In this document: in pieces, positions 3,879-23,823 of the stretch
Layout of the letters: each line of letters begins with the position of its first letter
How positions within the stretch are numbered: the stretch's first letter is position 1
Assembly: GCA_041694835.1 (NCBI GenBank)
Contig: JBGFRZ010000045.1
Span: 1-23,823 of the forward strand
Reading direction: 5' to 3'
Source: Ignavibacteria bacterium
GTDB lineage: Bacteria > Elusimicrobiota > Endomicrobiia > PHAN01
Length of the DNA stretch: 23,823 bases
The notes under the pieces: model-generated
The model's database searches: none
Told to the model about the DNA's origin: nothing
What the model saw: the letters and a program-made list of their open reading frames with translations, nothing else
Translations under genes and position numbers: made by a program

Positions 3879-4140
3879 ATAGTAGGTAGTAGATAGGGAA
3901 TGACGAATAGCGGATAGTGAATAGAGGTGAGAGATGAGGGGTGAGAGAATAGCGAATAGTGAATAGCAAATAGCGAATAGTGGATGGCGGCTGGTGACTG
4001 GAGGAAACGAGCCACGAGCCACCGCTGCTCTGCTGCCCTGACTTGTGTTCTTGTGCCCTTGTGCTCTGCCACTCTGTCCCCTGTCCTCTGACTTCTGCCG
4101 TTGTGCTCTTGTGCACTTGTGTTCTTACGCCCTTGTTCTC
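3874..4140 (+). repeat. Periodic tract: 21 in-phase degenerate purine-rich heptamers, then pyrimidine-rich 7/8-mers
   Basis: 3874-4020 agtagat agtaggt agtagat agggaat gacgaat agcggat agtgaat ... agcgaat agtgaat agcaaat agcgaat agtggat ... acgagcc acgagcc; then CTTGTGNN octamers (cttgtgtt cttgtgcc cttgtgct ... cttgtgca cttgtgtt). Fills the whole dnaK-dnaJ gap. Confidence 0.9.
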
Positions 4141-4146
4141 TAACGT

Positions 4147-10271: not shown

Positions 10272-10350
10272 AAGCAGCAAATAGCAAATAGTAAATAGTA
10301 AATAGTGAAAAACACTTAATCGCTATTTGCTATTCGCTATTTACTGCCTT
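10271..10350. repeat. Heptamer inverted-repeat hairpin (AATAGYA)n...(YGCTATT)n
   Basis: AAAGCAGCAAATAGCAAATAGTAAATAG vs CTATTTGCTATTCGCTATTTACTGCCTT, 24/28 complementary. Confidence 0.85.
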
Positions 10351-10355
10351 TAATT

Positions 10356-11777
10356 ATGGAACTAAACGACAACGAACTATCGGCTTTGGTTGCCGAAGTA
10401 ATCAAAAAACTCCAATCATCGCAAATCGGCGTTTCCGCTCTCAACACGACGGGAAGTCCTATATGCGGTTCGTTAGACGAAGCGATTGCTCTTGCAAAAT
10501 CATCTCAGAAGGTTTTCGTCCGTCAAGGTTTGGCTCAGAGAAATAAAGTCATACAAGCCATAAGAGATGTTTCTCTAAAAAACGCTGAGCATCTGGCTAA
10601 AATGGCTCACGAAGAAACAAAAATGGGCAGGTGGGAAGATAAAGTCCAAAAAAATATTCTCGCCGCCACAAAAACTCCGGGGGTTGAAGATATTCAACCG
10701 CTCGCCTATACGGGCGACCGCGGACTTACCCTCGTCGAAAGAGCGCCTTTTGGAATAATCGCCGCCGTAACGCCGTCGACAAATCCGACTTCGACGGTTA
10801 TAAACAACGCGATTTCAATAATCGCCGCAGGGAACTCTGTAATTTTTGCTCCACACCCCGCTTCCAAAAAATGCGTCCATGAGACGATAAAACTCATCAA
10901 CGACGCCATAGTTTCGGATGGCTCTCCTTCAGGGTTGATTACGACGGTTGAGCCGCCTTCGGTTGAATTTACAAAATCACTGCTGAATCATTCCGAAGTA
11001 AAACTCAATCTTGTGACAGGTGGACCCGCGATTGTAAAAGTCGCGATGGGCGCCGGCAAAAAAACAATTGCCGCCGGCCCCGGCAATCCGCCCGTCGTGG
11101 TTGATGAAACCGCTGAATTTCCAAAGACGGTAGACGCTATAATCGACGGAGCTTCATTTGACAACGGGGTTCTGTGCGCCGCGGAAAAAGAAACTATTCT
11201 CGTCGAAGCGGTCGCGGAAAAATTTTTAAGATATATAAGAGCCGACTCTCGCGGATATGAACTTACAAAATCGCAGCTCGACGAACTCGCCAAAATCGTA
11301 ATAAAACGTCCCGGCGGACGCGGCTGCGAAGGGGAGATGAACAGGGATTTTGTCGGAAGGAACGCGAATATAATCGCAAGAGCGATTGGTCTGGATCTCC
11401 CCGACAGCGTCCGTCTGCTCTGGGGCGTTGTTCCGAATGACCATCCGTTCGTCTGGACAGAACAGTTGATGCCGGTAATGCCGGTTACGGTTGTAAAAGA
11501 CATTGACATAGCGATTGATTTTGCCGTCGAAGTTGAAGGCGACAACCACCACACTTTCATAATGCACTCTCTCAATGTTGAAAATCTTTCCAATATGGCG
11601 CGCGCATGTCAGGGCTCTATTTTCGTCAAAAACGGTCCGTCTTATTTTGGACTCGGCATGGGTGAGGGATACGCGACGCTCTCAATCGCCACTCCGACGG
11701 GCGACGGACTTGCAAAGGCATCCAACTTCACGCGTCCATTGCGGTGCGTTTTGGTTGATTATTTCAGGATAGTGTAA
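10356..11777 (+). CDS. CoA-acylating aldehyde dehydrogenase (EutE/PduP family) with N-terminal encapsulation peptide
   Basis: TPSTNPT, VTGGPAIV, AGPGNPPVVVDETA, catalytic GASFDNGVLCAAEKE, EQLMPV; N-terminal amphipathic helix LSALVAEVIKKL. Confidence 0.95.
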   Translation: MELNDNELSALVAEVIKKLQSSQIGVSALNTTGSPICGSLDEAIALAKSSQKVFVRQGLAQRNKVIQAIRDVSLKNAEHLAKMAHEETKMGRWEDKVQKNILAATKTPGVEDIQPLAYTGDRGLTLVERAPFGIIAAVTPSTNPTSTVINNAISIIAAGNSVIFAPHPASKKCVHETIKLINDAIVSDGSPSGLITTVEPPSVEFTKSLLNHSEVKLNLVTGGPAIVKVAMGAGKKTIAAGPGNPPVVVDETAEFPKTVDAIIDGASFDNGVLCAAEKETILVEAVAEKFLRYIRADSRGYELTKSQLDELAKIVIKRPGGRGCEGEMNRDFVGRNANIIARAIGLDLPDSVRLLWGVVPNDHPFVWTEQLMPVMPVTVVKDIDIAIDFAVEVEGDNHHTFIMHSLNVENLSNMARACQGSIFVKNGPSYFGLGMGEGYATLSIATPTGDGLAKASNFTRPLRCVLVDYFRIV

Positions 11778-12282: not shown

Positions 12283-12375
12283 ATCGCCACTCCGACGGGC
12301 GACGGACTTGCGGAGGCATCAAATTTCACAAGACCTTTAAGATGCGTTTTGGTAGATTATTTCAGGATAGTATAA
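12283..12375 (+). pseudogene. Displaced duplicate of the last 30 codons plus stop of the aldehyde dehydrogenase
   Basis: 80/93 nt identical to 11685-11777, first 29 nt identical; translates IATPTGDGLAEASNFTRPLRCVLVDYFRIV* (one aa change). Confidence 0.95.
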
Positions 12376-12997: not shown

Positions 12998-13063
12998 ATT
13001 TCCCGGTGGTATGTCTTGGTTGATTATTTTGGGATAGTGTAGAATTTTTATGAGGGTATAAAA

Positions 13064-18565: not shown

Positions 18566-19870
18566 ATGAACATCGTTGAAATGGTAAAAAACGCGGGGGT
18601 TGTCGGCGCTGGCGGAGCGGGTTTTCCGACGCACGTAAAACTTCAATCGCAGGTTGACACCGTCATAGCCAACGGAGCCGAGTGCGAACCGATATTAAAA
18701 ATAGACCAGCAGATGATGGTTCTTTATGCCGACAAGGTTGTGCGGGGCGTTGAACTCGCTATGGAGTCCACCGGCGCAAAACGCGGAATCATCGCACTCA
18801 AGAAAAAATACCATGATGCAACTGAATCACTTAATCGCTCCATCGCTTCATCTCCTAATCGCTCAATTTCTTTATTTGAACTTGACAATTTTTATCCCGC
18901 AGGCGACGAGTTTATAACGGTTTACGAAGTGACAAAACGGCTCATACCCGAAGGGGGACTGCCGCTTCAAGTCGGATGCGTGGTTGACAATGTCGTCACT
19001 TTAATAAATATCGCCAAAGCTGTCGAGAGTTCAAAAGCGGTTACGGAGCGGCCTGTCACGATTTCTGGCGCGGTAAAAAATCCTGTTTCACTGATTCTGC
19101 CCGTGGGAACGCCCGTTAAGAGAGCGATAGAAATAGCGGGCGGTGTCAGTGTCGACGACTATACGATAATTGATGGTGGTCCAATGATGGGCGTGATAAT
19201 AACCGAAGGCGATGTCATCACCAAAAAAACTTCAGGAATACTCGTTTTGCCGTCGGAACACGAAGTTGTGTTCCAGAAAACAAACCGCCATGCAATAAAA
19301 CAGGTTAAATCCGCTTGCGAGCAATGTCAGGACTGCACGGAAATCTGTCCGCGTTATCTTTTGGGGCACAATTTTGAATGCCATAAAATACAGCGCACAG
19401 TTCAGGCGGGAAAATCCGCTCATCTCACGGCGGTATTTATGTGTTCTGAGTGCGGTCTTTGCGATTGGGTCTGTCCCGTGAAACTTACGCCCAGAAGGAC
19501 TAATCAGCTCATCAAACGCGAACTGATAAAGAAAGGAATTAAAAATCCGCATAACAACAAGCCGTATCAAACACGCGAGATGAGGGCATATAGAAAAGTC
19601 AACACGGCAAGAGTTGTGGCAAGAAACGATGTCTTAAAATACGACGTGCCCGCCCCGCTCAACGATAACGAATTTGATATTAAAGAAGTTAAAATGCCGC
19701 TTCATCAAAATGTGGGCGTTCCGTCGGTGCCGGTTGTAAAAGTCGGAGACAGCGTCGTAAAAGAACAGTTAATCGCCGATATCCCCGAAGGAAAACTCGG
19801 AGCGAAACTCCACGCCTCAATAAGCGGAAAGGTTGTCGAAGTAAGCGATTGCATAAAAATTGAGAGGTAA
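18566..19870 (+). CDS. pduS: PduS-like BMC-associated flavin/4Fe-4S oxidoreductase (RnfC-related)
   Basis: AGVVGAGGAGFPTH.K, NGAECEP, YPAGDE, GGPMMG, two ferredoxin motifs (CEQCQDCTEICP, CSECGLC..VCP), C-terminal HASISG barrel; BMC context upstream of pduT. Confidence 0.85.
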   Translation: MNIVEMVKNAGVVGAGGAGFPTHVKLQSQVDTVIANGAECEPILKIDQQMMVLYADKVVRGVELAMESTGAKRGIIALKKKYHDATESLNRSIASSPNRSISLFELDNFYPAGDEFITVYEVTKRLIPEGGLPLQVGCVVDNVVTLINIAKAVESSKAVTERPVTISGAVKNPVSLILPVGTPVKRAIEIAGGVSVDDYTIIDGGPMMGVIITEGDVITKKTSGILVLPSEHEVVFQKTNRHAIKQVKSACEQCQDCTEICPRYLLGHNFECHKIQRTVQAGKSAHLTAVFMCSECGLCDWVCPVKLTPRRTNQLIKRELIKKGIKNPHNNKPYQTREMRAYRKVNTARVVARNDVLKYDVPAPLNDNEFDIKEVKMPLHQNVGVPSVPVVKVGDSVVKEQLIADIPEGKLGAKLHASISGKVVEVSDCIKIER

Positions 19871-19872
19871 TT

Positions 19873-20100
19873 ATGAGAAAGAAATTACATCTTGTCAAAG
19901 AACCGCATGTAAATTACAAAACCAACACTATTACAATTCCTGTTGAGGTTTTTGAGACAGCAGACACCAAAGAAGAAATTGAGGATTGGCTACTGGCACA
20001 CGACCCCGAGTTTATCAAAAGAATGAGAAAAGCAAAAGCAGATATGGAAGCAGGTAAAGGTATAACTCTTGAAGAATTAAAGAAAAAACTATGTGTATAA
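19873..20100 (+). CDS. Putative type II antitoxin
   Basis: 75 aa, DPEFIKRMRKAKADMEAGKGITLEEL C-terminus; overlaps the downstream RelE-like gene. Confidence 0.75.
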   Translation: MRKKLHLVKEPHVNYKTNTITIPVEVFETADTKEEIEDWLLAHDPEFIKRMRKAKADMEAGKGITLEELKKKLCV

Positions 20101-20365
20101 AGTGATATATCTGCCTGAAGTGGATGACATAATTGATGACCTGGACGCTTCCATTAGAGAGGGTATAATCAGAAAAACTGAATGGCTCGGTATAAATGCA
20201 GAAAATATCGCACATCATCAATTGACTTCAATGCCAGATGACTTGAAAGGTCTTTGCAGGATCCATAGCGGCAACTGGCGAATTCTCTATTGGATTTCTC
20301 ATGAAAAACGAAAAATATGGGTTTTCACAATAGAACATCGCTCAAAAGTGTATAAAAAAATATAA
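20093..20365 (+). CDS. RelE/ParE-family toxin
   Basis: MYKVIY..., LKGLCRIHSGNWRILY, IEHRSKVYK. Confidence 0.88.
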   Translation: MYKVIYLPEVDDIIDDLDASIREGIIRKTEWLGINAENIAHHQLTSMPDDLKGLCRIHSGNWRILYWISHEKRKIWVFTIEHRSKVYKKI

Positions 20366-20388: not shown

Positions 20389-20940
20389 ATGATTCAACCA
20401 TCAATAGGACTTCTTGAAACAAACTCGATAGCAAAAGGCATTGAAGCAAGCGATGCGATGCTCAAAACAGCGGGCGTCGAACTCGTGGACGCTTATGCGA
20501 TCTGCCCCGGAAAATATCTAATTTTGATAACCGGCGCGCTTTCAGATGTTCAATCGAGCATGACTGCGGGAGCCGATATCGCTTCGGGAACAGTTATAGA
20601 CAAAATGCTTATACCAAATGTCAGCAACCAGATTGTTCCGGCGATACTTGGCGCATCCGAAATAGACGATATAGAAGCGATTGGCGTTCTTGAGATATTT
20701 ACGGTTGCTTCTTGCATCATCGCCGCAGATATAGCCGCAAAAACTGCTCAAGTAAAACTCATTGAAATTCGTCTGGCGAAAGGCCTCGGTGGAAAGTCCT
20801 ATTTCACTTTGACCGGCGAAGTCGGGGCTGTTCGCTCGGCAATCAACGCCGCTGTTGCAGAAATAAAAGACGAGGGAGTAATTGTCCAGAAGGTCGTAAT
20901 ACCTCAGGCGCATAAAGAATTGAAGAGAACGCTATTATGA
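20389..20940 (+). CDS. pduT: BMC tandem-domain shell protein, PduT-like (BMC-T)
   Basis: Two BMC domains (IGLLE..SIAKGIEASDAMLK; IGVLE..VAS.IIAADIAAK..RLAKGLGGK); ICPGKY retains the PduT Fe-S-binding Cys. Confidence 0.92.
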   Translation: MIQPSIGLLETNSIAKGIEASDAMLKTAGVELVDAYAICPGKYLILITGALSDVQSSMTAGADIASGTVIDKMLIPNVSNQIVPAILGASEIDDIEAIGVLEIFTVASCIIAADIAAKTAQVKLIEIRLAKGLGGKSYFTLTGEVGAVRSAINAAVAEIKDEGVIVQKVVIPQAHKELKRTLL

Positions 20941-21386
20941 AAATCGTAATTGGTTCAGACCATTCGGGTTTTAGGTTGAAAGAGCATCTAAAAAAATACC
21001 TACAAAAAGGTGAATATGATGTCATTGATTTTGGTTGTTATTCGGAAGAGCCGGTTGATTGGCCCGATGTGGCGATTCTTGTCGCTGAAGCGATTTCAAA
21101 AAAAGAGTTTGAAAAAGGTATACTCATAGATGGAACCGGCGGGGCGATGCCTATTGCTGCGAATAAAGTGCCGGGGATAGTTGCTGTTTGCGCCTATAAT
21201 GAACTGACGGGAAAATTTGCGTCGGAGCACGACGATGCCAATATTTTATGTCTTGGCGGAAAGATGCTCGGAGAACTTGCCGCTGATAGTATAGTTAAGG
21301 CGTGGCTTGATACACCTTATGCCGGCGGCAGGCATGAGCGACGCTTACAAAAATTAAGGGAGATTGAAAAAAAATATCTGAAATGA
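20937..21386 (+). CDS. rpiB: RpiB/LacAB-family sugar-phosphate isomerase, non-canonical (DGTG)
   Basis: GSDHSG, ANKVPG, EHDDANIL, GGRHERR; IDGTG in place of ICG(T/S)G. Confidence 0.88.
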   Translation: MKIVIGSDHSGFRLKEHLKKYLQKGEYDVIDFGCYSEEPVDWPDVAILVAEAISKKEFEKGILIDGTGGAMPIAANKVPGIVAVCAYNELTGKFASEHDDANILCLGGKMLGELAADSIVKAWLDTPYAGGRHERRLQKLREIEKKYLK

Positions 21387-21518
21387 TCCCGCACTTATTT
21401 TGTATTGTTGTTCAATACGCTCTATTAAATTATGCGTATATCCAATATACAACTTTCCACTTTTGTTAAATTCGAGTATATAAACGTAGTACATAATTCA
21501 TACAAAGTAGGTGCGGGA
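21387..21518. mobile_element. 132-bp MITE, copy 1
   Basis: 19-bp TIR TCCCGCACTTATTTTGTAT/ATACAAAGTAGGTGCGGGA, flanked by TGA on both sides; 128/132 identical to 22949-23080. Confidence 0.92.
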
Positions 21519-21976
21519 TGAAAATCGCTATCGCTTCAGACCATGCGGGATTTAGATACAAAAACGAAATATCATCGTTTTTGAAAGATAAAAGATACGA
21601 GGTGGTGGACTTCGGATGCTCTTCAAACGAATCTTGCGATTATCCGGACTTCGGCTATGAGGCCGCTCTTTCGGTGTCTAATCTCGAGTGCGAAATGGGA
21701 ATTCTCATTTGTGGAAGCGGCGTCGGGATGAGCATAATAGCAAACAAACTTCCCGGAGTTCGAGCGGCTCTTTGTTTCAACGAGGACATAGCAAAACTTT
21801 CGCGTGAACACAACAACGCAAACATTATCTGTATAGCCGCCAGGTTTTCTAAAGTAGAAGATGTTAAAAAATGGGTTGTTTTATTTTTAAGCACGCCTTT
21901 TGCCGAAGGAAGACACAGACTTCGCGTCGAAAAGATATCTGAATTTGAGAGGATGATATTAAAAAGAAAGTTATGA
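21518..21976 (+). CDS. rpiB: Ribose-5-phosphate isomerase B (canonical)
   Basis: ASDHAG, DYPD, ICGSGVGMSI.ANK, SREHNNAN, EGRHRLR. Confidence 0.96.
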   Translation: MKIAIASDHAGFRYKNEISSFLKDKRYEVVDFGCSSNESCDYPDFGYEAALSVSNLECEMGILICGSGVGMSIIANKLPGVRAALCFNEDIAKLSREHNNANIICIAARFSKVEDVKKWVVLFLSTPFAEGRHRLRVEKISEFERMILKRKL

Positions 21977-22401
21977 AAAGAGCATATATCGCTTTATTTC
22001 TTTTGATTCTTTCGGTTTCTTTTTTGAACGCCAAAGACGAGATGTTCAAAATCGCTCTTAAGTATGCGAGCGCTGGAAAAATCGATGAAGCAATACAGAT
22101 TTTAAGCGAGGATGTCGCTGAAAATCCCACCGCAGAGAGATACCTCGCTCTTGGCGTTGTTTATCTGCAAAAAAAGGATTACGATGCCGCGTTTGAAAAT
22201 TTGAAAGAGGCGGTAAAACTCAATCCCTATTCAGCACCCGCCAGGTATTCTCTCGCGATGCTTTACGAAAAGAAAAAAATGTACACCGAGGCAATCAATG
22301 AGTGGAAAAAATTTCTGCCATTTGCCGGAGACAAGGAGTTAAGACATCTCGCCAAAAGGCATATAAAGCAATTGGAAATAATTCAAAATGAATCCCGTTA
22401 A
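21973..22401 (+). CDS. Secreted tetratricopeptide repeat protein
   Basis: Signal peptide MKRAYIALFLLILSVSFLNA; TPR patterns LGVVYLQKKDYDAA..AVKLNP, LAMLYEKKKMYTEA. Confidence 0.85.
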   Translation: MKRAYIALFLLILSVSFLNAKDEMFKIALKYASAGKIDEAIQILSEDVAENPTAERYLALGVVYLQKKDYDAAFENLKEAVKLNPYSAPARYSLAMLYEKKKMYTEAINEWKKFLPFAGDKELRHLAKRHIKQLEIIQNESR

Positions 22402-22948
22402 GACATTGTCAGCGGTTTTAGTCGTTTTAACAATCGGATGCGCCACTTCGAAAATTTCGTATAAGAGCGGCTACAATTTTTCCGGGATAAAAAAAATTTA
22501 TGTCGAAGAATTTAAATCGTCGCCGGATTTTGGAAGTGCCGGGAATGTCGTCAGGGATTCGTTTATAAGGGAGCTGATGAAAAGCGGTTATACAGTAACG
22601 GAAAATGATTTGGAAGCAGATGGCATTATCGGCGGCAGCATAATCACTTTCTCACCGGAAAAGAAGTATCTGATAATGCTTTCCAAGCCCGGCAACGATG
22701 CTAAGGTTGTTCTCCATCAGCCGATAGAAATAGGCGGTTCAAACATTTACTCGTTCGGCTCGGCGTTTGGGCTGAAAGAGGAAAATCAGATAATAGTTTC
22801 TAACGCCACTGTGGGAGTTTCAGCCTTGATGAAAGACTCGAAAACCAGCGAGATCGTCTGGTCTAACTCGTTTACATACGAAGGTCTTACCCTTGATACG
22901 GCTCTTAACGGACTGATAAGGTATTTAGTAAGGACGATACCGAGGTGA
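22388..22948 (+). CDS. Hypothetical lipoprotein
   Basis: Lipobox LTIGC after a hydrophobic stretch; overlaps the TPR gene. Confidence 0.75.
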   Translation: MNPVKTLSAVLVVLTIGCATSKISYKSGYNFSGIKKIYVEEFKSSPDFGSAGNVVRDSFIRELMKSGYTVTENDLEADGIIGGSIITFSPEKKYLIMLSKPGNDAKVVLHQPIEIGGSNIYSFGSAFGLKEENQIIVSNATVGVSALMKDSKTSEIVWSNSFTYEGLTLDTALNGLIRYLVRTIPR

Positions 22949-23080
22949 TCCCGCACCTACTTTGTATTGTTGTTCAATACGCTCTATTAAATTATGCGTA
23001 TATCCAATATACAACTTTCCACTTTTGTTAAATTCGAGTATATAAACGTAGTACATAATTTATACAAAATAGGTGCGGGA
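22949..23080. mobile_element. 132-bp MITE, copy 2
   Basis: TIR TCCCGCACCTACTTTGTAT/ATACAAAATAGGTGCGGGA, flanked by TGA (22946-22948, 23081-23083). Confidence 0.92.
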
Positions 23081-23361
23081 TGAAAGCAGCGAAAGTTATA
23101 GGAAGGGTGGTGGCTACGAGAAAATCTCCGTCGCTTGAGGGGATAAAACTGCTTTTGATTCAGCCTCTCACATGGGACAAAAAACCTCACGGCGACCCGC
23201 TTGTCGCTGTTGATGTCGTCGGAGCGGGCGCAGGCGAATTTGTTTTCTGGGTCGCGGCCCGCGAGGCCGCCGTCGGGGTCGGTGGGACAGACTTGAAAGA
23301 CACACCGCCGGTCGACGCCGCGATACTTGGAATTATCGACGGGGTAAATTTAGCGACTTAG
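23080..23361 (+). CDS. Second BMC pentamer/vertex protein (EutN/CcmL family)
   Basis: AKVIGRVVATRK..LEGIKLLLIQP, VAVDVVGAGAGE.V, REAA, PVDAAILGIID. Confidence 0.96.
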   Translation: MKAAKVIGRVVATRKSPSLEGIKLLLIQPLTWDKKPHGDPLVAVDVVGAGAGEFVFWVAAREAAVGVGGTDLKDTPPVDAAILGIIDGVNLAT

Positions 23362-23378
23362 CGACTCAGCGGCGTAGA

Positions 23379-23717
23379 ATGAAGACATATAAAGATTTAA
23401 TGGTTTGGCAGAAAGATTTCAACTTGGCAATAAAAATTCTTGAATTGGTTGATAGTTTTCCAAAGACACAAAAAGCAAATATAATTTCATCGCAATTAGT
23501 TCGTGCAGTTACGTCAATTGGCGCTAATATTGCCGAGGGATATGTCCGAAAGCAGGGTAAAGAAATGGAACAATTTTTTCAGTATGCGATTGGTTCCGTG
23601 AATGAAACAGACCACTGGCTAAACGTATGCAAAAACATCGATTTTATTGATAACGAGAATTATGATAATCATGCAAATACTTGTTTGGAAATAGTTAAAA
23701 TGTTAGGTAATGGCTAA
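23379..23717 (+). CDS. Four helix bundle protein (23S rRNA IVP / bAvd-like), C-terminus probably truncated
   Basis: YKDLMVWQK, FPK, QLVRAVTSIGANIAEGY, FQYAIGSVNET; ends abruptly MLGNG*. Confidence 0.9.
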   Translation: MKTYKDLMVWQKDFNLAIKILELVDSFPKTQKANIISSQLVRAVTSIGANIAEGYVRKQGKEMEQFFQYAIGSVNETDHWLNVCKNIDFIDNENYDNHANTCLEIVKMLGNG

Positions 23718-23823
23718 ACAATTCGGACTAATTTTTCATCAAAATGAGTGTGCTGTAACATCTTCAGTATAGTCGGAAAAAGGTCTTCGTCTCTATGATT
23801 AAATCTGAAAGAAATTTCACCCA
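23706..23823 (-). mobile_element. End of an IS1595-family-like insertion sequence (transposase C-terminus, cut by window edge)
   Basis: Minus strand 23821-23714 reads GEISFRFNHRDEDLFPTILKML..* (E..FRFN.R motif of IS1595/ISXO2 DDE transposases); candidate terminal IR starts GGTAATG at 23706. Confidence 0.7.

Follow-up and report, generated by a model that had tools for sequence, protein, structure and literature searches.

The Locus and Its Two 132-bp Repeats

The window, i.e., the whole stretch of 23,823 nt analysed here (contig JBGFRZ010000045.1 of assembly GCA_041694835.1, which amounts to 1.9 Mb in total and is 97% complete), contains a BMC operon in which two copies of a 132-bp repeat lie between co-directional genes. 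The first of these genes, an rpiB paralogue (20937..21386, forward strand), ends with a TGA stop codon (21384-21386) that directly abuts copy 1 of the repeat (21387-21518, no strand assigned), and a second TGA (21519-21521) follows the repeat. The second rpiB paralogue (21518..21976, forward strand) opens with an ATG composed of the last A of the repeat, at 21518, and the TG of this right-hand TGA. It is followed by a host gene for a TPR protein (21973..22401, forward strand), which is located between the two copies and whose order is kept in two related genomes, referred to here as G001 and G002, and by a lipoprotein-like gene (22388..22948, forward strand), the TGA stop of which (22946-22948) forms the left duplication of copy 2 (22949-23080, again without an assigned strand). 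The right TGA of copy 2 (23081-23083) contributes in the same manner to the rebuilt ATG of the gene for the BMC vertex protein EutN/CcmL (23080..23361, forward strand). In addition, two forward-strand open reading frames of 28 codons run into the copies, one (21383..21469) opened by the old ATG that overlaps the stop of the first rpiB gene and the other (22945..23031) by a GTG that overlaps the lipoprotein stop; their putative function is taken up with the model below.

The two copies, spaced about 1.5 kb apart, are identical at 128 of 132 positions (repeat search D1 returned 140 nt at 97%) and share the layout TGA-TCCCGCAC..GTGCGGGA-TGA, with all four mismatches located at or adjoining the ends of the element. 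These ends are inverted repeats of 19-20 nt, longer than the figure given in an earlier sequence-only reading of this DNA. In copy 1 they occupy 21387..21405 (left, forward strand, inverted-repeat search I11) and 21500..21518 (right, forward strand, I6), and in copy 2 22949-22967 and 23062-23080 (I12). The right-hand repeat includes the Shine-Dalgarno (SD)-like motif AGGTG (21509-21513 and 23071-23075), ending 4 nt 5′ of the downstream ATG in both copies; the 3′ end of 16S rRNA, sought for a check of this motif, was not found in the assembly. The coordinates and alignment thus agree with what the sequence-only reading had described, namely two TGA-flanked copies, a left TGA that serves as the upstream stop, a downstream ATG made from the last A and the duplicated TG, and an SD-like motif within the terminal inverted repeat; the sibling copies discussed below share this anatomy.

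A scan of the 1.9-Mb assembly showed that the 11-mer TGATCCCGCAC and an 18-nt end motif are confined to the two copies, and the repeat is therefore not due to chance. No third copy emerged when the complete assembly was searched by sensitive blastn and for the motifs, and no public sequencing run is listed for positions 20900-23400. Single strands of the element fold far more stably than shuffled sequences (RNA z -5.0; DNA z -2.7 to -5.5). Scanning of positions 20800-23823 against Rfam (E up to 1) gave no match for the element; the sole match in this region, a snoRNA-like one at 22467-22550 on the opposite strand, was judged to be a chance hit.

Empty and Filled Sites in Relatives

Joining the flanks directly, an element-free junction would read ..AAATGAAAATC... 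Such an empty rpiB/rpiB junction, with an ATGA overlap (..TATTCCAAATGAAAATTGCC), is found in G001, which belongs to the same genus as G002, where the site is filled; the expectation that removal of the element restores ATGA at this position was thereby borne out. The GTGA overlap that had been proposed as the ancestral state at copy 2 did not find the same support: the counterpart of this junction reads TAA-AA-ATG in G001 and has a spacer of ~50 nt in G002, an empty GTGA site is present in neither of them, and the original junction is not reconstructable from these relatives. Note also that a composite transposon, in which the two direct copies would carry the rpiB2, TPR and lipoprotein genes between them, was considered and rejected, as G001 and G002 share the gene order with zero or one element.

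A GIY-YIG Nuclease Gene as Parent

Each window copy contains, on the reverse strand, a remnant of a GIY-YIG nuclease gene in which the first ~31 codons are joined to codons from the other end (copy 1, 21399..21497, 26.5 bits on PF01541; copy 2, 22961..23059, 27.5 bits; cut-off 22.6 bits), and a separate profile search of the remnant gave 28.3 bits on the same family. A longer form exists in G002, a member of the Endomicrobiia from the same family as the window genome. Its 288-bp element has the same ends, is located at the rpiB1/rpiB2 junction in the orientation opposite to that in the window, and holds a near-complete GIY-YIG frame of 89 codons with one TAG. The 132-bp unit corresponds to this element minus 156 bp, and the junction of the deletion is common to both window copies, although their flanks differ. 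Uninterrupted homologues of the G002 frame (P0003) are P0004 (95 aa, 76% identity) and P0005 (94 aa, 74%). The C-termini of both read ..YKVGAG and are encoded by the inverted repeat, which indicates that the nuclease frame stops directly after the end of the element. P0004 matches PF01541 with 58.6 bits over residues 2-71 and has no other domain. Its best match by sequence among solved structures is 1zg2 (BH0048, UPF0213 / Slx1-like; E 1.3e-8, residues 1-70), a distant relation, and we know of no mobile context described for BH0048.

The two repeats are true MITEs, gutted copies of an unusual GIY-YIG-bearing parent: they are shorter than ~500 bp, have inverted ends and a target duplication, and possess a longer coding relative with the same ends. 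A nuclease gene of the matching type is missing from the 97%-complete window assembly. As there are just two copies and no such gene, the window copies are probably immobile relics, and the recent activity that had been read from their 128/132 identity is not supported, the differences lying in or beside the ends. The autonomous insertion sequence with a 3-bp duplication that had also been anticipated turned out to be a GIY-YIG unit of ~290-330 bp and not a transposase-encoding one; the duplication length was correct for the window, whereas it is 4 bp in relatives.

Sibling Elements and the Choice of Target

When 185,579 species genomes were scanned for the exact end pattern, 17 loci emerged, mostly single chance matches, and a partner arm was found only in G002 and at three Planctomycetota loci. 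The window end sequence is present in just 2 of 401 sampled Elusimicrobiota genomes. Arms with the same ends number 9, 12 and 31 in three Planctomycetota genomes, versus 0, 0 and 1 for a reversed-pattern control, and they sit at unrelated genes. These observations bear on the reading, which we regard as highly improbable, that the repeat is not mobile here and that a hairpin belonging to the host, located between genes and serving as a signal for processing, stability or attenuation, was duplicated locally in the BMC operon. Its strong folding and its placement, twice in one operon between co-directional genes, would suit such a signal. However, the repeat is lacking from the corresponding junctions of G001, it encloses a decayed protein-coding remnant and has no Rfam match, and the same ends recur in another phylum.

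Twelve of the 23 paired Planctomycetota elements have a terminal A that forms, together with the flanking TG, an ATG opening an ORF of at least 76 codons, a placement with a background of 416 in 146,676 positions (0.28%). A perfect TGAA or TGAG duplication preceded by A surrounds ten siblings, and the insertion rule of this lineage is A/TGAR (the slash marking the insertion point), with a 4-bp duplication in the Planctomycetota siblings. The duplication measures 3 bp (TGA) in the window versus 4 bp (TGAA/TGAG) in G002 and these ten siblings. A stop/start ATGA overlap occurs at five of the 12 start-rebuilding siblings, and one further case is TAATG. Since only five of them lie on overlaps, the target is the start codon and not the overlap per se; the idea that the element targets overlapping junctions therefore holds for a subset of insertions, but not as the rule.

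GIY-YIG enzymes are classic homing nucleases, and homing alone may be asked to explain the locus: a free-standing homing-endonuclease gene would spread between rpiB-junction alleles by break repair, with copy 2 arising by ectopic gene conversion or rare recombination. The rpiB junction carries the element in two genera and lacks it in a third genome, which suits site-specific homing, as does the very low copy number in the window genome. We nevertheless find this explanation unlikely, because dozens of arms with 4-bp duplications are dispersed at unrelated loci within single Planctomycetota genomes, and because both window copies bear the same internal deletion despite their different flanks. 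Moreover, the 95-aa protein has no DNA-binding domain of the sort present in known homing enzymes of the GIY-YIG family (TIGR01453, 21.1 bits versus a cut-off of 56). Free-standing genes of the I-TevI/Seg type combine GIY-YIG with a DNA-binding domain and have neither inverted ends nor a duplication, whereas the present element has a single domain and both of these features.

A Wider Class of GIY-YIG Cassettes

GIY-YIG ORFs enclosed by inverted repeats (score of at least 13) were found for 38 of 66 testable metagenome relatives and at 14 of 29 Elusimicrobiota loci, and inverted repeats of this score at none of 54 control positions. A broader set comprises 46 unique cassettes with differing end sequences; in all of them the ends enclose the GIY-YIG match, and 35 of these 46 units measure less than 340 bp. 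An excess of start-codon adjacency was not detected among the 46 by a crude ORF test (9/46 versus 87/519 in the control). Many cassettes are located within genes for rRNA or RNase P RNA, or next to a tRNA gene, and the start-codon rule is therefore not general to the class: it applies to the present end-sequence lineage and some others, not to every GIY-YIG cassette.

The same data bear on the view that these are ordinary MITEs, in which the inverted repeats are those of a conventional insertion sequence whose transposase mobilises them in trans, with the GIY-YIG gene as mere cargo. Inverted ends together with a 3-4-bp duplication are a hallmark of DDE transposition and fit this view well, and the role of the GIY-YIG protein in movement is itself a prediction from sequence. 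We consider this view quite improbable all the same, a little more so than homing. The constant position of the GIY-YIG match in such small cassettes argues against cargo, as does the passage of the nuclease frame through the end sequence itself. In addition, neither an IS-sized end pair nor a transposase gene flanked by these inverted repeats, as in a classical insertion sequence, was found at 30 Planctomycetota sibling loci or in the window genome.

A Model for Insertion and Start-Codon Rebuilding

The explanation that we favour, and deem likely, is that the window repeats are non-autonomous derivatives of a ~290-330-bp GIY-YIG element that inserts at start codons and rebuilds the ATG. The parent would have ~20-nt inverted repeats beginning TCCCGCACC and, as its lone gene, one for a ~95-aa single-domain Ssn-like GIY-YIG nuclease, and an in-frame internal deletion of 156 bp would have removed the catalytic half of this gene, leaving the MITE. 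Insertion would occur at a start codon, between A and TGA(A/G), ATGA overlaps included, and would duplicate TGA in the window or TGAR elsewhere. As both ends finish ..AGGTGCGGGA, either orientation would set AGGTG and an A before the duplicated TG, so that the downstream gene would keep an ATG and the upstream gene its TGA. Such a rebuilt start codon would allow the element to be tolerated in tightly packed operons, with neither neighbour broken. Of these points, the anatomy, the parentage and one empty site are shown by the sequences, as is the target rule in siblings.

A full-length element that lies in the sense orientation may be read through translational coupling. The chain in G002 starts with a 9-codon ORF, the old ATG of which overlaps the stop of rpiB1 and the TGA of which overlaps the start codon of the nuclease gene. 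At the far end, the nuclease frame crosses the inverted repeat as far as the duplicated TGA, its stop codon, and the rebuilt ATG of rpiB2 overlaps this TGA. A 20-bp mRNA stem may mask the SD-like motif and start codon, to be opened by ribosomes arriving from the upstream gene or from the 28-codon ORF. To our knowledge, GIY-YIG nucleases do not join DNA. By analogy with Ssn nucleases, the enzyme may recognise the single-stranded hairpin of the paired ends and cut a few bases outside it (PMC11893778), whereupon host repair would seal the joints.

We see about even chances for a broader proposal, according to which the window elements belong, as a single lineage, to a class of minimal transposable elements that has yet to be described. 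Members would be ~300 bp long, with an Ssn-like GIY-YIG nuclease as sole protein, and would move as an end-paired hairpin; this lineage would home to start codons (A/TGAR), borrowing initiation signals via ATGA coupling and returning an SD-like motif plus ATG, while its relatives would turn to the genes for rRNA, RNase P RNA and tRNA, the class spanning Elusimicrobiota and Planctomycetota. If true, a nuclease gene of <300 bases and paired ends would suffice for a mobile element, based on a family of enzymes for which DNA transposition is not known; we know of no insertion sequence smaller than such a ~300-bp element. A parasite of compact genomes would enter an operon position with free expression and mend the damage with a spare start signal. 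Practical gains would include natural nuclease-hairpin pairs with a defined TGAR flanking specificity, usable as ssDNA tools, and an explanation in genome annotation for unusual hairpins of 100-330 bp located at start codons and within rRNA and RNase P RNA genes.

Comparison With Known Systems

The titles and abstract openings of the literature searched mention neither a GIY-YIG-only element with inverted ends nor a start-codon-rebuilding MITE. Correia/NEMIS and RUP elements are bacterial MITEs derived from insertion sequences, and the present element resembles them in its small size, inverted ends, short duplication and operon-internal intergenic position, and also in the strong transcript hairpin and the descent by internal deletion from a longer coding element. 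It differs from them in that its parent encodes only a GIY-YIG protein, and not a DDE, serine or HUH transposase, and is itself MITE-sized (~300 bp), and in that its target is a start codon, which the element restores.

With REP/REPIN-RAYT and IS200/IS605 it shares a lone small nuclease gene, hairpin repeats, non-autonomous hairpins and a likely ssDNA substrate. RAYT and TnpA, being tyrosine enzymes of the HUH type, both cleave DNA and join it again, whereas the action of GIY-YIG enzymes is confined to hydrolysis, and IS200/IS605 elements move without target duplication.

Among published systems the nearest relative is Ssn/NTS, in which Ssn nucleases are associated with hairpin repeats termed NTS/SRM (Chenal et al., Nat Commun 2025, PMC11893778; cited here from excerpts). 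According to these, Ssn cuts ssDNA in a hairpin-specific manner a few nt upstream, and the authors liken NTS-ssnA-NTS to an insertion sequence, their Discussion also raising the comparison with RAYT-REP/REPIN and IS200/IS605 (PMC11893778). P0004 is 41% identical to a G001 protein over 66 residues (E 4e-14), and this G001 homologue is flanked on each side by a match to the published NTS consensus; the identity and the 1zg2 match are at most indirect evidence for a possible placement of P0004 in CDD family cd10448. The published SRM pattern has no match in the window or in the G002 element, versus two in the positive control L140 and one in L138. The same excerpts report no empty sites, target duplications, or start-codon targeting or rebuilding (PMC11893778). 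If our broader proposal is correct, it would explain in concrete terms how the hairpin repeats of Ssn/NTS arose in evolution. Both systems have in common a single-domain GIY-YIG protein of ~94-95 aa, hairpin-forming brackets and scattered gene-less hairpin copies, and they differ in the hairpin itself, which in the present element is formed by terminal inverted repeats pairing across the gene and in Ssn by compact palindromes that flank the gene to its left and right (PMC11893778).

The two copies and their junctions

The window carries two copies of a 132-bp repeat, copy 1 at 21387-21518 and copy 2 at 22949-23080, which are identical at 128/132 positions, as the sequence-only reading had counted. 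TGA flanks both copies on either side. The left TGA is the stop codon of the upstream ORF, encoding an RpiB paralogue (20937..21386) at copy 1 and a lipoprotein-like protein (22388..22948) at copy 2, and the element's last A together with the following TG provides the ATG of the downstream ORF, encoding another RpiB paralogue (21518..21976) and EutN/CcmL (23080..23361), respectively. The proposed rebuilding of a downstream start codon by a TGA-flanked element is seen at both copies. The inverted repeats are 19-20 nt long, and AGGTG is found 4 nt upstream of the ATG in each case.

All four differences between the copies (21387-21405 compared with 22949-22967, plus the right arms) are transitions, three of them in the inverted repeats and one just inside the right inverted repeat, the interior of ~90 nt being the same in both. 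In the left arm of copy 1, two altered bases still pair G-T with the right arm. A search of the 1.9-Mb, 89-contig, 97%-complete assembly revealed no further copies (two in total), and the 18-nt end motif is absent elsewhere in it. The 132-bp repeat has no Rfam match, and no nuclease partner gene was found in the window's genome.

A parent element encoding a GIY-YIG nuclease

On their minus strand, both copies retain the coding sequence for the first ~31 residues of a GIY-YIG nuclease (MYYVYILEFNKSGKLYIGYTHNLIERIEQ..), with PF01541 scores of 26.5 and 27.5 bits (Pfam cut-off 22.6). A 288-bp element with the same ends lies between rpiB1 and rpiB2 in G002, an Endomicrobiia genome of the same family and another genus, where it contains an 89-codon GIY-YIG frame with one TAG in frame. 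Two intact homologues were recovered when 5.8 billion proteins were searched: P0004 (95 aa, 76% identity) and P0005 (94 aa, 74% identity). Both terminate in ..YKVGAG, residues whose codons lie in the far inverted repeat, and their frames therefore close directly outside the element. P0004 consists of a single GIY-YIG domain and has UPF0213 protein BH0048 as its best solved relative.

Alignment in the sense of the nuclease gene shows that the window copies correspond to the G002 element with 156 bp removed. The deletion junction, joining ..GAACAACA to ATACAAAG.., is common to both window copies, and therefore the deletion came first and the duplication of the copy later. The window repeats thus qualify as MITEs, strictly defined.

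Empty and filled sites in relatives

Gene order is conserved in G001, a genome of the same genus as G002, where rpiB1 and rpiB2 meet (..TATTCCAAATGAAAATTGCC) in an ATGA overlap without the element; this is the empty rpiB/rpiB site that had been predicted from the window. The filled junction in G002, where ..TATTCCAAATGAA meets TCCCGCAC.. on the left and ..GCGCGGGA meets TGAAAATAGC on the right, corresponds to the element plus a 4-bp duplication, TGAA; the duplication in the window is 3 bp. With respect to rpiB, the element interior in the window runs opposite to that in G002. For these three genomes, two independent insertions at the rpiB junction would be more economical than one insertion combined with an inversion and a precise loss in G001. 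The GTGA overlap postulated for copy 2 was not seen in the relatives: the counterpart in G001 (..CCTAAATAAAAATGAAAGCAGCC) reads stop, two bases, ATG, and that in G002 is a spacer of ~50 nt, the common feature at this junction being a ATGAAAGC start.

Other features of the window

The EutN gene is followed by a PF05635 gene ('23S rRNA intervening sequence protein', a four-helix bundle; 23379-23717), whereas G001 and G002 have at the matching place only a short repeat-rich spacer before a second EutN gene, which suggests that the PF05635 gene is a further inserted cassette. Intergenic arrays of 7-8-base words (AATAGYG.., CTTGTGCY..) at 1601-1643, 3885-3990, 4041-4141 and 10273-10345 have complementary arms on both sides of genes (families D2, D3, I1-I5), and a similar spacer of G-rich words precedes the EutN gene in G002. 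After a 434-aa gene (18566-19870) come two small overlapping ORFs of 75 and 90 aa (19873-20365), and then the BMC shell gene at 20389; by size and overlap the two ORFs give the impression of a toxin-antitoxin pair. A 93-nt direct repeat (11685-11777 and 12283-12375; D4, D6) is 86% identical between copies ~600 bp apart, with a partial third copy at 13008-13041.

Target rule from sibling elements

The end pattern occurs in 2/401 sampled Elusimicrobiota genomes, G000 and G002 (<=2 mismatches). Scanning species genomes for the exact pattern pointed to three Planctomycetota MAGs, which contain 9, 12 and 31 arms (reversed control 0, 0 and 1; <=3 mismatches). Among the 30 loci returned, 23 short elements of 41-388 bp were paired. 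Twelve of these form, from the terminal A and flanking TG, an ATG that opens an outward-facing ORF (76-500 codons), against a background rate of 0.28% (416/146,676 positions); the other 11 rebuild no long ORF. A perfect TGAA or TGAG duplication, with an A preceding the left copy, is found in 10/23, and the target is therefore a start codon, then A, then a purine. In one full-length sibling (L153, 328 bp), the GIY-YIG frame reads straight on from the old host ATG. The notion that overlapping junctions are targeted holds in part: five of the 12 start-rebuilders occupy true ATGA overlaps (upstream ORF of at least 60 codons ending in the left TGA) and one a TAATG overlap, but the remainder have no overlapping upstream gene. 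At the seed loci, elements lie in the 3' end of 23S rRNA (L020), between 23S and 5S rRNA (L026) and within RNase P RNA (L023).

Three alternatives were considered, namely spread by homing alone, a classical transposase supplied in trans and a regulatory hairpin of the host; none explains how a decayed remnant of the nuclease, an empty site and many scattered siblings flanked by TGAR duplications occur together.

The wider GIY-YIG class

Small GIY-YIG genes are present in 147/401 Elusimicrobiota genomes. The ORF lies within inverted repeats (score >=13) at 14/29 Elusimicrobiota loci from the search for such genes and at 38/66 testable metagenome loci (80 in the set, 14 being left out as too close to contig ends); 0/54 control positions reached this score, the highest being 10. 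End sequences vary by lineage, often starting with a C-rich block and then GCAC. Start-codon adjacency showed no general excess among 46 unique cassettes in a crude test (9/46 vs 87/519). To judge from their flanks, some cassettes lie within the genes for 23S rRNA or RNase P RNA or at the 5' ends of tRNAs; Rfam places GIY-YIG loci in 23S rRNA (L085, L095, L106, L120) and RNase P RNA (L023, L064) and detects tRNA genes in L029, L068 and L069. Which target is used thus depends on the lineage.

P0004 is 41% identical to a G001 protein with NTS-consensus-matching sequence on both flanks. At L140 (G001:C16, about 787-1184), a GIY-YIG gene of ~99 aa carries on both flanks, in inverted orientation, a 28-nt hairpin matching the NTS consensus published for Neisseria; the hairpin also occurs at L138 (about 818). 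Canonical Ssn/NTS and terminal-inverted-repeat forms therefore coexist in one bacterial family.

Expression, proposed movement and comparison with Ssn

In the G002 sequence, the old ATG overlaps the stop TGA of rpiB1 and opens MNPAPTLYK*. The nuclease ATG in turn overlaps the stop of this short ORF (..AAATGATG..). The nuclease frame crosses the far inverted repeat and ends at the duplicated TGA, a stop codon overlapping the rebuilt ATG of rpiB2. The element is thus a unit without its own promoter or stop codon, linked into the operon through ATGA overlaps, three in all. In the antisense MITEs of the window, the old ATG or GTG opens a 28-codon ORF ending ~50 nt before the rebuilt ATG. In the predicted transcript fold, the SD-like AGGTG and the first base of the ATG are paired within a 20-bp stem, which ribosomes coming from upstream would open.

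A literature search by title and abstract found no description of such an element. Added here are the Endomicrobiia and Planctomycetota lineage of the element, an occupied and an empty version of one ATGA junction, the origin of the MITE by a 156-bp deletion, the quantified A|TGAR rule and the triple ATGA relay.

For movement, the sole experimental anchor, by analogy, is the Ssn work (Chenal et al., PMC11893778). In that study, single-domain GIY-YIG Ssn proteins of 94 aa bound a hairpin only when it was in single-stranded DNA and cleaved a few bases upstream of it, cleavage being governed by the three bases upstream of the hairpin; its authors liken NTS-ssnA-NTS to an insertion sequence. By the same logic, the paired element ends would serve as an Ssn-type hairpin and TGA(R) would be the bases upstream of it. 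Its nuclease, like Ssn, is a single-domain protein of ~94-95 aa. Neither the window nor the G002 element matches the published SRM pattern, and we file the parent element as Ssn-like, not as a demonstrated Ssn member.
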